64,000 bases of DNA from Bacteroidota bacterium (GTDB lineage: Bacteria; Bacteroidota; Bacteroidia; 2-12-FULL-35-15): the NCBI GenBank assembly GCA_947447995.1, contig CANFLQ010000002.1, positions 14,002-78,001 on the forward strand. The letters are read 5' to 3'. This document shows, piece by piece, positions 57,336-63,550 of the stretch; position 1 is the first letter of the stretch, and each line of letters starts with the position of its first letter. The notes below the pieces were generated by a model. The model searched no databases. It saw only the letters and a program-made list of their open reading frames with translations, and was not told the origin of the DNA. A program made the position numbers and the translations under genes.

Positions 57336-58370
57336 TTAGAGGGTTGCCAATATTCCCTTATTTATTTGTTTTACAATGCCTGGTCCTTCATAAATAAATC
57401 CAGTATAAACTTGCACAAGACTAGCGCCCGCCTTTAGTTTTTCAATTGCATCTTCAGCAGTATAAATACCACCAACAGCAATAATTGGAAATGCCTTACC
57501 CGACTTTTCACTTAAATACCTAACAACTTCCGTTGAACGTTTAACCAATGGTTTTCCACTTAATCCTCCGGCACCAATTGCCTTTAGTTTTGAATCTGAA
57601 GTATTTAAGCCTTCTCTTGAAATAGTAGTATTGGTTGCAATTACACCATCAATTTTTGTTTCTTTAACAATATCTATAATGTCATCCAATTGTGAATCGG
57701 TTAAATCTGGAGCTATTTTTAACAGTATAGGTTTTGGATTCTTCTTTTGAGAATTAATCTCTTTCAAATGTTTTAGCAATTGAGTAAGAGGGGCTTTATC
57801 TTGCAATGCGCGAAGATTAGGTGTATTAGGAGAACTTACATTCACAGCAAAATAATCTACATAATCGAAAAGAGCTTCAAAACATTTAGAATAATCACTA
57901 ACAGCGTCTTCATTTTCAGTTATTTTATTTTTACCAATATTACCTCCGATAATAATTTTTGTTTTGCGTTTTTTTAAATGATTAACAGCTTCATCTACAC
58001 CTCCATTATTAAATCCCATTCTGTTTATCAACGCCTCATCTTTGGGTAAACGAAACATTCTAGGTTTTTCATTACCTGGTTGCGCTTTTGGGGTAAGCGT
58101 ACCTATTTCAATAAAACCAAATCCAAAATTGCCCAACTCATCAAATAATTTGGCGTCTTTATCAAAACCTGCAGCCAATCCAACAGGGTTAGGAAATGTA
58201 AGTCCAAATAATTTACGTTCCAAACGTTTATCCTTTACCACATAAATGCTTTGCACAATTAAGGTAACTCCAGGAATAGCAAAAAAAAACTTAATTATTT
58301 TAAAAACGATGTGATGAATTGTTTCTGGTTGAAAGAGAAACAAAATGGGTTTTATAATGATTTTATACAT
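57336..58370 (-). CDS. pyrD: Dihydroorotate dehydrogenase (quinone), class 2.
   Basis: [35 protein letters not shown] and GGLSG. N-terminal membrane-associated helix. Confidence 0.9.
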
Positions 58371-58523
58371 AGGGGTAATAATCTTAACACGAAATTACTA
58401 TTTATTTACCATGCTAAAAAAATAATATAGGAAAACCTTCTTACTTTATTATAACAAAATTGAAAAGAACAATAACTACTAACTAAAAACTCAAATTATT
58501 TTTTAACAACACATAATTATATT

Positions 58524-58555
58524 TTAGACTAGCCTAAATTTTATTTATATATTTG
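58524..58555 (+). promoter_or_regulatory. Candidate DtxR/MntR-type operator (TTAGACTAGCCTAAATTTT) overlapping the promoter (-7 box TATATTTG) of the DtxR-like / mntH operon.
   Basis: TTAGNNTAGCCTAA matches the left half and core of the DtxR consensus TTAGGTTAGCCTAACCTAA. The -7 motif is at 58548-58555, 19 bp before the ATG. Confidence 0.4.
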
Positions 58556-58573
58556 TCTTAAATAAATAATCCA

Positions 58574-59260
58574 ATGCAATCATTTACAGAAGAAAACTAC
58601 ATAAAAGCCATCTATAAACTAATAGAAGCTAATGGCAATACTGTTAGTACAAATTCCATTGCCGAAAAAATGAATACAAAGGCTGCCTCTGTTACAGATA
58701 TGCTAAAAAAACTGTATACAAAAAAGCTTATTAATTATAAAAAATACCAAGGTGTAACCCTTACCACTAAAGGAGAAAAAACAGCTCTTAATATTATTAG
58801 AAAGCACCGTTTATGGGAAATGTTCCTAGTAGAAAAACTTGATTTTAAATGGGATGAGGTGCATGATGTAGCCGAACAATTAGAACACATTGATTCAGAT
58901 AAACTTATTGAACAAATTGATAAATTTTTAAATTACCCAAAGGTTGATCCTCATGGAGACCCTATACCTGACGCAAAAGGAAAGTTAAATGTGACTAAAT
59001 CTCAGGTCTTATCTAAGTTCAATAAAAATGATGTATGTGTAATGACAGGTGTTGTAGATCACAGTCCTTCTTTTTTGCAATATTTAGATAAATCAGGTAT
59101 TAACTTAGGAATTGAAATCCAAATAAAAGATGTTGTGCTATTTGACCGCTCTTTACAAATAACCATTAATAAAAATACTGCCATTTTTATTAGCAATGAA
59201 GTTGCTAAAAATATTTTAGTGATTAAAAAAAACTATAAAAAAAACTCATTAAAAGTATAG
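58574..59260 (+). CDS. DtxR/MntR-family metal-dependent transcriptional regulator with a C-terminal FeoA/SH3-like domain.
   Basis: N-terminal HTH ENYIKAIYKL...NTVSTNSIAEKMNTKAASVTDMLKKL, the metal-binding and dimerisation region, and a C-terminal SH3-like domain. Confidence 0.85.
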   Translation: MQSFTEENYIKAIYKLIEANGNTVSTNSIAEKMNTKAASVTDMLKKLYTKKLINYKKYQGVTLTTKGEKTALNIIRKHRLWEMFLVEKLDFKWDEVHDVAEQLEHIDSDKLIEQIDKFLNYPKVDPHGDPIPDAKGKLNVTKSQVLSKFNKNDVCVMTGVVDHSPSFLQYLDKSGINLGIEIQIKDVVLFDRSLQITINKNTAIFISNEVAKNILVIKKNYKKNSLKV

Positions 59261-59271
59261 TTAAATATAAA

Positions 59272-61143
59272 ATGAAAACGACTAAATCATTGTCAGAAGT
59301 ACACGAAAGTGTTGATACCATAAATAAAAAAGGATTTTGGAAAAAGCTTTTTGCTTTTATAGGCCCAGCCTATTTAGTAAGTGTTGGATATATGGATCCA
59401 GGTAATTGGGCAACAGATATTGCAGGTGGTAGTCAGTTTGGGTATCAATTACTTTGGGTGCTTTTAATGAGTAATCTTATGGCTCTAATATTACAAAGCC
59501 TAAGTGCCAAGTTGGGTTTGGTACAAGGCTTAGATCTTGCACAAGCCTCCAGGGCAACTTATCCTCCAATTGTTAACCTTTTTAATTGGGTATTAGCAGA
59601 AATAGCAATTGCTGCATGTGATTTGGCCGAAGTGATAGGTATGGCAATAGGCTTGCAATTACTTTTTCATATACCACTTTTAGTAGGCGTTTCAATCACG
59701 GTGTTAGATACAATTCTTTTATTAATCCTATCACGCTATGGTATGCGTAAAATGGAAGCTTTTATTTTAGTGCTTATTGCTACCATAGGGTTAGCATTTA
59801 TAGCTGAACTGTTTTTCTCAAAACCCGATGGTGCTGCACTTGTTAAAGGTTTTATTCCTACAATTCCAAACCATTCAGCCTTATATATTGCTATTGGAAT
59901 TATTGGAGCTACGGTAATGCCTCATAATTTATATCTTCATTCATCATTGGTTCAAACACGAAAAATAGATCGCAGTGAAGCTGGAATTAAAGAAGCTATT
60001 AAATTCAATTTTATAGATACATTTATTGCACTTAATCTTGCTTTGTTTGTAAATGCAGCAATCTTAATTCTTGCAGCTGCTGTATTCTTCTCTACTGGAC
60101 ATAACGAAGTAGCTGAAATACAGGATGCCTATAAACTTCTAAGCGATATTTTAGGTAATAACCTTGCTCCCATTTTATTTGCTGTAGCACTGATTGCAGC
60201 TGGACAAAGTTCCACTCTTACAGGTACACTCTCTGGACAAATTGTAATGGAAGGCTACTTAAATCTTCGCATTCAACCTTGGTTACGCCGTATAATAACT
60301 CGTTTGATAGCAATAGTTCCTGCATTTATTGTAATTTATATTAAGGGCGAAGAAGCTACTGGAGAGTTGCTTATTTTAAGTCAGGTTTTATTGAGTTTAC
60401 AATTAGGATTTGCTGTTATACCACTTATTCATTTAACAAACGACAAGAAAAAAATGGGGCAATTTGCCAACACAATACCAGTAAAAATTGCAGCTTGGGC
60501 AATTGCCACCATTATTATCGCACTAAATGCAAATCTTGTTATAGAAACTATTTTAGGATGGATAAATAACTCAGAGAATCCCTCAATATTATATTTTATA
60601 GTTGTTCCTTTAGTCGTTATTTCAGCAATATTTTTATTGTATATCACTTTTAGTCCTATAATAAAAAAAGTAAAACTCAAAAGGAATCACGTTCCAGATG
60701 GTAAAGTTGAAACATTAGATATTTTTGGGGGAATTAAATATCATTGTATTGCCATAACCGTTGATTTTAGCAGTAGCGATAATAAAGCTATTAGTAACGC
60801 GATTGCACAAGGCGGTAATACTGCAAAATATATTTTAATTCATATTGTAGAAACAGCAGGAGCACGACTAATGGGTAATGAAATTGATGATCTAGAAACC
60901 TTATCTGATAAGAAAAACTTAGAGCAATATAAAATTGAACTTGAGAGCAAAGGTTTTACCATTAGAACTAAATTAGGATTTGGCAATCCTAAAAAAAGTA
61001 TTCCAGAAATTGTTAATGAAACCAATTGTGATTTGCTTGTAATGGGAGCTCATGGTCATAAAGCATTAAAAGATATTATTTTTGGTACTACACTTGATGC
61101 TGTACGACATAGTGTTAAAGTTCCTGTATTGATTGTAAAATAA
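59272..61143 (+). CDS. mntH: Nramp-family divalent metal transporter (MntH) fused to a C-terminal universal stress protein (USP) domain.
   Basis: [23 protein letters not shown] (Nramp signature) and 11 TM segments. The C-terminal ~150 aa, ITVDFS...[35 protein letters not shown], is a UspA-type domain. Confidence 0.85.
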
Positions 61144-61171: not shown

Positions 61172-61660
61172 ATGAAGAACGAAAACAATATCAATATAAA
61201 AAACAAACGTGCATCCTTTGAGTACTCCTTTATTGATAAATATTTGGCAGGTATTCAATTAACAGGAACCGAAATAAAATCAATACGTGAAGGGAAATCT
61301 ACAATAAACGAAGCGTTTTGTGTTTTTATACTTACTAAAAGAAGTAAAGAAAATCCAATGAAACGCAATAGCGAGTTGTTTATTAGGAACATGCATATTG
61401 CCCATTATTTTAATGGCACCTATAATAATGTTGAAGAAAAAAGAGATAGAAAATTATTGCTCAATAAACGTGAACTGGAAAAACTTCAAGATAAATTAAA
61501 GGATCAAGGGTTGACAATAGTGCCAATTCGTTTATTTGTAAACGAAAAAGGATATGCCAAACTAGAAATAGCTTTAGCTAAAGGAAAAAAAATATTTGAT
61601 AAACGGGACGATATTAAAAAAAGAGATATAGAGAGGGATACAAACAGACAATTAAAATAA
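61172..61660 (+). CDS. smpB: SsrA-binding protein SmpB.
   Basis: [26 protein letters not shown]...NMHIAHY...[13 protein letters not shown]...[10 protein letters not shown]. Confidence 0.9.
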
Positions 61661-62791: not shown

Positions 62792-63550
62792 TTAATGAAC
62801 AGCTTTTATCTCTACTCTTCTATTCATAGCTTTACCTTCTTCTGTTTCATTAGAACCTATAGGTTTTGTTTCGCCATAACCAGTTACAGAGGTAATTCTA
62901 GCTGCTGGTATTCCTTTAGATATAAAATACTCTCTAATTGTTTTTGCTCTTCTTTTAGATAATGCCAAATTATATTCATCCGAACCAACAGCATCAGTAT
63001 ATCCTTCAATTATAAAATTCAAATTGATATATGAAGTTAAAATTTTCAATATATCATCTAATGGTTTATAAGAGTCTTCAGTTAATGTAGCACTATTAGT
63101 ATGAAAAAACACTTGCTTAGCAAAAGTTTTAATTTCTTTAGCCTCTTCTAAAGCAAACTCCTTTACAGGAGGTTTAGCTGCCTCCGCTGCTGCTGCTGCT
63201 AAAGCAGCAGCTTTTAAAGCCATCCTAACTTTGGTTAAAGAATCTCTTTTCTCTAATTCATAAATGTATTTAGATAAAGTAATTGCTTCTTTATCAGAAT
63301 AATCATGAGTAGAATCTTTTCCAATAACATCAATTAATAATTTAGGATCAGAAATACTAGCAACATCTTTCAACCCAAAACCATTAGGTTCTGTTGCATT
63401 AGCTAGTGAATCTTTTTTCTCTAGCTCATATACTTGGTTAGACAACTTCATTAACTCTTTTTCATTAAATCGATTAAGAGTATCGCATTGTGAATAACCT
63501 ACCAACGAAATGTTGCATAGAAACACAATTAACAAACTTATATTTTTCAT
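62792..63550 (-). CDS. OmpA-family lipoprotein / peptidoglycan-associated protein.
   Basis: Signal peptide plus Cys, an internally duplicated YELEK(K/R)DSL segment, an Ala-rich linker, and the C-terminal OmpA domain GYTDAVGSDEYNLALSKRRAKTI...NRRVEIK. Confidence 0.8.
   Translation of the reverse strand: MKNISLLIVFLCNISLVGYSQCDTLNRFNEKELMKLSNQVYELEKKDSLANATEPNGFGLKDVASISDPKLLIDVIGKDSTHDYSDKEAITLSKYIYELEKRDSLTKVRMALKAAALAAAAAEAAKPPVKEFALEEAKEIKTFAKQVFFHTNSATLTEDSYKPLDDILKILTSYINLNFIIEGYTDAVGSDEYNLALSKRRAKTIREYFISKGIPAARITSVTGYGETKPIGSNETEEGKAMNRRVEIKAVH

Follow-up and report, generated by a model that had tools for sequence, protein, structure and literature searches.

In this work, we analysed a 64,000-nt stretch of contig CANFLQ010000002.1 (hereafter, the window; 32.8% GC), which derives from a low-GC uncultured Bacteroidota bacterium, focusing on two adjacent genes that encode a DtxR/MntR-family metalloregulator and an Nramp transporter with a C-terminal universal stress protein (USP) domain. 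The pair is preceded by a 16-bp dyad that is conserved upstream of related loci and corresponds to the type of site bound by the manganese sensor DR2539 of Deinococcus radiodurans. Taken together, our results are best explained, with a probability of about 0.75, by a manganese-homeostasis operon subject to Mn(II)-dependent autorepression, in which transport would additionally be under a USP-linked nucleotide control. According to both the homolog and the genome-collection comparisons, the closest relatives of the window are metagenome-assembled genomes (MAGs) of uncultured Bacteroidota.

A conserved dyad precedes the regulator-transporter pair

The region upstream of the regulator gene contains the imperfect dyad TTTAGACTAGCCTAAA, which displays the frame TTTAG-N6-CTAAA. 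Within the window alone this frame is found twice, with 0.29 matches expected, which constitutes weak evidence. Further, in a species-level genome collection we identified 555 stretches encoding relatives of the transporter, from which 80 loci were kept, all of them from Bacteroidota or allied MAGs. The two genes are arranged as dtxR-nramp in 52 loci and as nramp-dtxR in 11, and the operator precedes whichever gene comes first, in both orders alike. The family consensus derived from the 80 loci is TTTTAGAC-TA-GTCTAAAA, with TTAG-N6-CTAA as its core. In 51/73 loci, the exact frame falls within the 150 nt preceding the leading gene of the pair, compared with 13 matches in 527 kb elsewhere, six of which correspond to the same operator in front of a fabH-like gene heading an operon in Hymenobacteraceae. 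When presence was called by the TTAG-N6-CTAA core, or by an exact 16-mer farther upstream, the operator was found in each of the 59 loci where dtxR is adjacent, compared with 5 of the 14 where it is not (Fisher p=2e-8, a value uncorrected for relatedness and thus inflated, the loci being phylogenetically related). A comparison across mntH orthologs had been proposed in an earlier reading of the sequence alone (the preliminary description), and it yielded a conserved site. The left half-site TTTAGAC is better conserved (A in 49/52, C in 39/52) than the mirror positions on the right (T in 31/52, G in 22/52), and the operator appears, from this pattern, to be functionally asymmetric.

The preliminary description had assigned the string TTAGACTAGCCTAAATTTT (58524..58542) to the operator consensus of DtxR. 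This string does belong to a real and conserved operator, but it is not the classic DtxR 19-mer: the match to the 19-bp site TTAGGTTAGCCTAACCTAA amounts to 13/19, a chance level that is reached by 21 19-mers in the window, and the register of that alignment is displaced 2.5 bp from the true dyad axis, the conserved dyad being even-centred and 16 bp long. The resemblance of its 'GCC' to the DtxR centre is due to a local variant of the window copy, whose TAGCCTAA centre is replaced by TAGTCTAA, TAATCTAA or AAATCTAA in most orthologs.

Two other kinds of candidate sites were discarded. The second TTTAG-N6-CTAAA match of the window, TTTAGCCTCTTCTAAA at 63137..63152, is contained within an OmpA-like open reading frame on the opposite strand and lacks palindromic inner bases; it was treated as a chance match. 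In several loci, site-like matches located about 641 nt inside dtxR correspond to conserved coding sequence (the ISNEVAKNI region) rather than to operators. Regarding published sites, the literature searched, covering PgMntR, Riemerella and Flavobacterium, yielded no Bacteroidota operator defined by experiment; the PgMntR paper demonstrates promoter binding and defines no motif.

The flanks of related loci displayed additional variation. In Hymenobacteraceae (Adhaeribacter and Pontibacter; L041 at 1021-2080, L042, L044, L047, L051 and L053), the fabH-like gene, encoding 332 aa and identified by eye only, is placed upstream of dtxR-nramp, and the operator and a TAnnTTTG-like box precede this gene rather than dtxR, which suggests a three-gene Mn-regulated operon including an enzyme of the lipid-synthesis type. 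In L047 and L051, the gap separating the fabH-like gene from dtxR is filled with tandem AACAATT(A) heptamer-like repeats, at about 100 nt from the latter on its upstream side. Seven loci (L004, L007, L014, L015, L017, L019 and L025) encode transporter relatives with 73-78% identity and have no dtxR within 3 kb; here the regulator may be absent or located elsewhere, which 3-kb flanks cannot tell. In six of these the operator was not found, and L015 displays a core-only TTAG-N6-CTAA match. In L004, the transporter gene follows a gene for a large secreted-repeat protein.

Promoter geometry

Bacteroidetes promoters are characterized by the -7 consensus TAnnTTTG. The only such box upstream of the regulator gene is TATATTTG, 9 nt downstream of the end of the dyad, and the dyad itself is situated over the -33/spacer region, clear of the -7 box. 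The overlap between operator and -7 box that had been proposed for this promoter is thus not present, and the TAAATTTT segment inside TTAGACTAGCCTAAATTTT does not qualify as a box either, ending in T and not in G.

Two discrete spacing classes were observed among the related loci, in which operator start and -7 box start are separated by either 19-25 nt or 43-48 nt, the window displaying 25 nt. The short class comprises the window and 19 other sites, with the dyad 3-9 nt from the -7 box; in the long class, observed in about half of the loci, 27-32 nt separate the operator from the -7 box downstream of it, which places the operator immediately upstream of -33. Even close relatives are split between them, with L001 in the short class and L002, L003 and L013 in the long one. 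Both spacing classes are compatible with repression.

The geometry also bears on another explanation, in which the dyad would be an activator site, or would be bound by a different protein, with the adjacent DtxR-like protein exerting no repression there. The location of the long class just upstream of -33 is typical of activators, and five loci carry the site without an adjacent dtxR; however, the strict co-occurrence with the regulator (59/59) points to this protein as the ligand of the dyad, and in the short class a dimer bound 3-9 nt from the -7 box must clash with the polymerase. Likewise, while the conclusion of the DR2539 preprint describes the regulator as 'activating' its target genes, both half-sites and recognition helix match the solved DR2539-DNA complex, and in known systems the holo-regulator represses uptake genes (established knowledge; PMC3327659). 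Considering these results, we regard an activator site or a different ligand as very improbable.

The regulator belongs to the DR2539 type of DtxR/MntR sensors

The product of the first gene displays the three domains of this family, according to Pfam: a winged helix (Fe_dep_repress, PF01325; E=1.2e-15, residues 5-61, above cut-off), a dimerisation and metal-binding domain (Fe_dep_repr_C, PF02742; E=7.7e-32), and a C-terminal FeoA/SH3-like domain (PF04023; E=1.1e-9, residues 146-216). Its nearest solved relatives are all Mn sensors, namely MntR of Mycobacterium tuberculosis (5zr4, 8e-39), SloR, ScaR, DR2539 (2e-29) and MtsR, whereas IdeR and DtxR match at about 1e-17 to 1e-12, some 20 orders of magnitude worse. 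The best NCBIfam match is MntR of the Thermus type (NF047407), far ahead of DtxR. The recognition helix reads A38-S-V-T-D-M-L-K-K-L. The protein is consequently described here as a three-domain DtxR/MntR sensor of the ScaR/SloR/Rv2788/DR2539 type and as a putative Mn sensor.

The metal-ligand positions are occupied by N8, H78, E82, H97, E101, E104 and H105. Six of them, H78, E82, H97, E101, E104 and H105, are invariant in 62 regulator orthologs and correspond to H79, E83, H98, C102, E105 and H106 of DtxR, so that the position of DtxR Cys102 holds a glutamate (Glu101), as in Mn-type sensors; the equivalent residue of Bacillus subtilis MntR (BsMntR) is Glu99, and the residue equivalences are tabulated in PMC4805248. 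At the N-terminal ligand position (window 58595-58597), Asn8 is found in 61/62 Bacteroidota orthologs, where Asp is present in BsMntR (Asp8), SloR, ScaR, DR2539 and Rv2788, and Met10 in DtxR; the regulator therefore lacks an acidic ligand at this position. Replacement of Asp by Asn would be a change of the conservative type.

Asn8 differs both from the Asp found in Mn sensors and from the Met found in Fe sensors, and leaves room for an iron sensor resembling DtxR or IdeR, in which case the operon would primarily be an iron-repressed Fe2+ uptake unit. Both Fe2+ and Mn2+ are substrates of Nramp transporters, and one homolog is named 'iron transporter' in the database; further, DR2539 is reported to be dually Mn- and Fe-dependent (PMC3327659). 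Nevertheless, the invariant Glu101 in place of the DtxR cysteine, the identity of the five best solved relatives as Mn sensors, with IdeR and DtxR far behind, and the NCBIfam ranking all argue for a manganese sensor, and we consider a primarily iron-sensing regulator improbable.

The transporter displays a canonical metal site and an additional helix

The second gene encodes an Nramp domain at residues 46-401 (Pfam, E=5e-136, 454 bits), and the protein scores 602 bits against the NCBIfam MntH subfamily model (cut-off 430), which ends at residue 428. Among 48 homologs, no variation was observed in the segments D42-P-G-N45 and A213..M216-P-H218. The combination of DPGN and A-x-x-M-P-H constitutes the canonical Mn2+/Fe2+ site of Nramp proteins, unlike the variants of the Mg (NRMT) or Al (NRAT) transporters; from these motifs, Mn2+/Fe2+ would therefore be expected as the substrate, and not Mg2+ or Al3+.

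Past the end of the MntH profile, an extra hydrophobic helix is predicted by AlphaFold2 (AF2) at residues 437-472, in agreement with a hydropathy peak at 434-467; the AF2 secondary structure, derived from a low-confidence model, comprises 12 long helices, of which this is the last. Since Nramp proteins have an N-in topology, 12 helices would place the C-terminus, and with it the USP domain, on the cytoplasmic side. The full-length AF2 model was poor, with a predicted local distance difference test score (pLDDT) of 54.6, due to a shallow alignment (at least 76% identity); it was used for the helix count and a coarse fold search only, in which it matched ScaDMT, EcoDMT and DraNramp with E~1e-16 (Foldseek), and the USP domain was modelled separately.

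The USP domain is of the nucleotide-binding class and its fusion to Nramp is common in Bacteroidota

The Usp domain was located by Pfam at residues 490-623 (E=4.8e-22), with the full profile covered. The USP-only AF2 model reached a pLDDT of 83.4 and a predicted TM-score of 0.80, and its top 50 fold matches in the Protein Data Bank (PDB) were all USPs, with TM-scores of 0.6-0.78 (Foldseek), including cAMP-bound MSMEG_3811, ATP-bound MJ0577, AMP-bound forms, TeaD and the c-di-AMP-bound USP of KdpD. The best PDB sequence match was likewise the ATP-binding protein MJ0577 (1e-9). The loop G592-A-H-G595...G605-T606 fits the motif G-x2-G-x9-G-(S/T), and neither this loop nor D498 varies among 120 close homologs; of the 74 orthologs across Bacteroidota that were readable at this position, 68 retain an intact motif and six carry substitutions (A-x2-G or G-[EQA]). 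The preliminary description had anticipated an Nramp core followed by a Usp-type domain in this 623-aa protein, and had listed the USP fold and the ATP-binding motif as checks; all of these were borne out. In summary, sequence and fold place the domain in the nucleotide-binding (ATP-type, MJ0577) class, and because the ATP-type loop is complete, it is predicted most likely to bind an adenine nucleotide.

This prediction has to be weighed against a ligand-free domain acting as a structural or dimerisation module, or as a platform on which other proteins dock, in which case transport would not be under nucleotide control. Many USPs, those of the UspA class, bind no ATP, and the six substituted orthologs and the poorly modelled loop would fit such a role; the conservation of G-x2-G-x9-G-T together with D498 in 120 close homologs, the intact motif of 68/74 orthologs, the best sequence match to MJ0577, and the presence of cAMP-, ATP- and AMP-bound USPs among the best fold matches argue against it. 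We therefore consider a ligand-free domain unlikely, although it is the strongest of the alternatives presented here.

Conversely, the view that the fusion is uncommon did not hold. Of 8000 scored homologs, the best 120 all combine Nramp with Usp, and all 80 kept loci matched through the C-terminal end of the transporter. Furthermore, this protein form has already been named: in Cellier 2022 (PMC9606685), a subgroup of MntH C designated MCaU is described with 12 transmembrane segments and a frequent C-terminal USP-like peptide, distributed mainly in Flavobacteriales, Sphingobacteriales, Chitinophagales and Cytophagales. The Nramp-USP fusion is thus the standard form in Bacteroidota.

Proposed mode of action

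With the integration of these findings, the following mechanism can be proposed for the manganese-homeostasis operon. A single regulator dimer in its Mn2+-bound form (the metal possibly being Fe2+ as well) would bind TTTAGACTAGCCTAAA and, by sitting over the -33/spacer region, would block RNA polymerase, switching off the genes of both regulator and transporter in a negative autoregulation. Upon a drop in Mn, the apo-regulator would leave the dyad, and the operon would be transcribed. The transporter would act as a proton-coupled importer of Mn2+/Fe2+, with its twelfth helix carrying the USP domain into the cytoplasm. USPs usually dimerise; the domain would most likely bind an adenine nucleotide and probably dimerise, adding a post-translational layer to the control of transport. 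Metal-dependent autorepression of a regulator-mntH pair had also been put forward in the preliminary description. Its components stand, namely a DtxR-family regulator, an operator of its own and an Nramp-USP partner, while from these we infer both the repression and its metal specificity.

A more specific version of the post-translational layer is that the USP domain serves as a cytoplasmic nucleotide sensor which gates or dimerises the Nramp carrier, with ATP, Mn-ATP, cAMP or c-di-AMP as the ligand. This proposal is tentative, with the odds somewhat against it. If true, Mn import would be shut post-translationally upon a change in energy charge, messenger or cytosolic Mn-ATP; such a gating would act rapidly, in addition to the slower repression of transcription, and this would be the first ligand-gated Nramp. 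It would resemble the way in which KimA is controlled by c-di-AMP, or the binding of nucleotides to the C-terminal domains of cation-chloride cotransporters.

Several points weigh against manganese-dependent autorepression combined with nucleotide control. With respect to the metal, Asn8 matches neither the Mn nor the Fe paradigm, and the selectivity is therefore not settled by the ligand residues; the regulator scores 147 bits, where the equivalog cut-off of NF047407 is 350 bits, and would thus be a relative, not an equivalog, of Thermus-type MntR; and DR2539 has been described as Mn- and Fe-responsive (PMC3327659). Concerning the sign of regulation, the position of the long spacing class also leaves activation conceivable, which we rate as unlikely for an uptake operon, and the wording 'activating' in the DR2539 preprint has to be considered as well. 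The co-occurrence p-value is, moreover, inflated. As for the USP domain, the nucleotide loop is the least confident part of the model (pLDDT <50 at model residues 119-126), and the literature searched contained no experiment on this protein or on any other member of MCaU.

Organization of the locus

The features of the locus are listed in Table 1. The regulator stop codon and the transporter start are separated by 11 nt, and the two genes are presumably co-transcribed because of this short gap. A scan of the whole window against Rfam for a Mn riboswitch or other structured RNA gave 0 matches, and no tmRNA. Regarding the downstream flank, SmpB (61172-61660) displays an insert of about 12 aa relative to the SmpB adjoining the same transporter in L004, and a TACCTTTG box is found in the 28-nt gap between the Nramp stop codon and smpB.

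Table 1. Features of the regulator-transporter locus and its flanks (window coordinates).
Feature	Position	Strand	Basis or remark
pyrD	57336..58370	-	upstream flank of regulator-transporter pair
Operator, imperfect 16-bp dyad TTTAGACTAGCCTAAA	58523..58538		conserved upstream of related loci
Bacteroidota-type -7 box TATATTTG (TAnnTTTG)	58548..58555	+	read from sequence; 18 nt before ATG
DtxR/MntR-family metalloregulator, 228 aa, three domains	58574..59260	+	Pfam
Nramp transporter (MntH, MCaU subgroup), 623 aa, 12 predicted membrane helices and C-terminal USP	59272..61143	+	Pfam, NCBIfam, Foldseek
Metal-site motif D42-P-G-N45 in transmembrane helix 1	59395..59406	+	read from sequence; invariant in 48 homologs
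Metal-site motif M216-P-H218 in transmembrane helix 6, A213 before it	59917..59925	+	read from sequence; invariant in 48 homologs
Predicted 12th transmembrane helix, about residues 437-472	60580..60687	+	AF2 secondary structure, hydropathy
USP domain, residues 490-623	60739..61140	+	Pfam, AF2, Foldseek
ATP-type nucleotide loop G592-x2-G595-x9-G605-T606	61045..61089	+	invariant in 48 and in 120 homologs
smpB	61172..61660		downstream flank of transporter gene

Significance

The locus is an ordinary and well-conserved Mn-homeostasis operon, whose fusion and type of site have already been described, and it overturns nothing. The TTTAG-N6-CTAAA frame represents a phylum-wide operator for the putative Mn regulator of Bacteroidota, tied to the solved DR2539 protein-DNA complex, and with its help Mn regulons could be mapped across Flavobacteriia, Cytophagia, Chitinophagia and related groups, in which the regulation of metals has received little attention. 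Nramp proteins fused to a USP are abundant, with 8000 homologs scored in the protein collection and 555 related stretches in the genome collection, and would be a convenient model for the control of transporters by USPs.

Comparison with known systems

DtxR of Corynebacterium and IdeR of Mycobacterium belong to the same protein family as the regulator, and the 14-bp core TTAG-N6-CTAA is equal to what we take to be the share of one dimer in their 19-mer; the operator in L041 carries TTAGGTTAGCCTAA exactly, in a further likeness to the DtxR/IdeR operator. However, the DtxR/IdeR operator (TTAGGTTAGCCTAACCTAA) is an odd-centred 19-bp site (9+1+9) occupied by two dimers, whereas the dyad of the window is even-centred, comprises 16 bp and would be occupied by one, and the metal site of DtxR and IdeR includes a Cys where the regulator has a Glu.

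The transporter shares with the MCaU subgroup (PMC9606685) the 12 predicted helices, the fused USP-like domain and the Bacteroidota host, and no feature distinguishes it from this subgroup. An origin by transfer from a eukaryotic Nramp is proposed in that paper, whose passages considered here address neither regulator nor operator. Regarding the USP domain, TeaD of the TeaABC tripartite ATP-independent periplasmic (TRAP) transporter (PDB 3hgm) and the USP of KdpD (PDB 7ji4) are other instances of a nucleotide-binding USP fold tied to the control of a transporter, and both were recovered by sequence and fold comparison; TeaD is a separate protein and KdpD a kinase controlling expression, in contrast to the USP of the window, which is covalently fused to the carrier. 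Similarly, the c-di-AMP-regulated K+ importer KimA and the cation-chloride cotransporters (NKCC/KCC) combine a LeuT-fold core and 12 helices with a cytoplasmic C-terminal alpha/beta regulatory domain that binds nucleotides or dimerises, an arrangement comparable to the one predicted here. Whole-length Foldseek matches to them reach E~5e-7, from the model with a pLDDT of 54.6 and with a root-mean-square deviation of 16-18 A and about 12% identity; as family and substrate also differ, the likeness is one of analogy only.

Judged by sequence and site, the closest characterised system is DR2539 and its target dr1709. DR2539 binds ATTTTAGTCGCGCCTAAAAT at the promoter of the Nramp gene dr1709 (mntH), as a single dimer and only in the presence of metal, as demonstrated by crystal structures and electrophoretic mobility shift assays (bioRxiv 10.1101/2024.02.12.579695; PDB 8pvt, 8pvz, 8pw0). 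This operator and the window sequence ATTTTAGACTAGCCTAAATT (58521..58540) are identical at 16/20 positions and share the TTTAG-N6-CTAAA frame; the recognition helices, reading PASVTGMLRKL in DR2539 and AASVTDMLKKL in the window regulator, are nearly identical, both regulators have the same three-domain architecture (E=2e-29), and an Nramp gene is the target in both cases. The window system differs in the adjacency and presumable co-transcription of regulator and transporter, which would lead to autoregulation, in two residues of the regulator (Asn instead of Asp as the N-terminal ligand, and Asp42 instead of Gly43 in the recognition helix), in the 12th helix and USP domain added to the transporter, and in a promoter of the Bacteroidota -33/-7 type.

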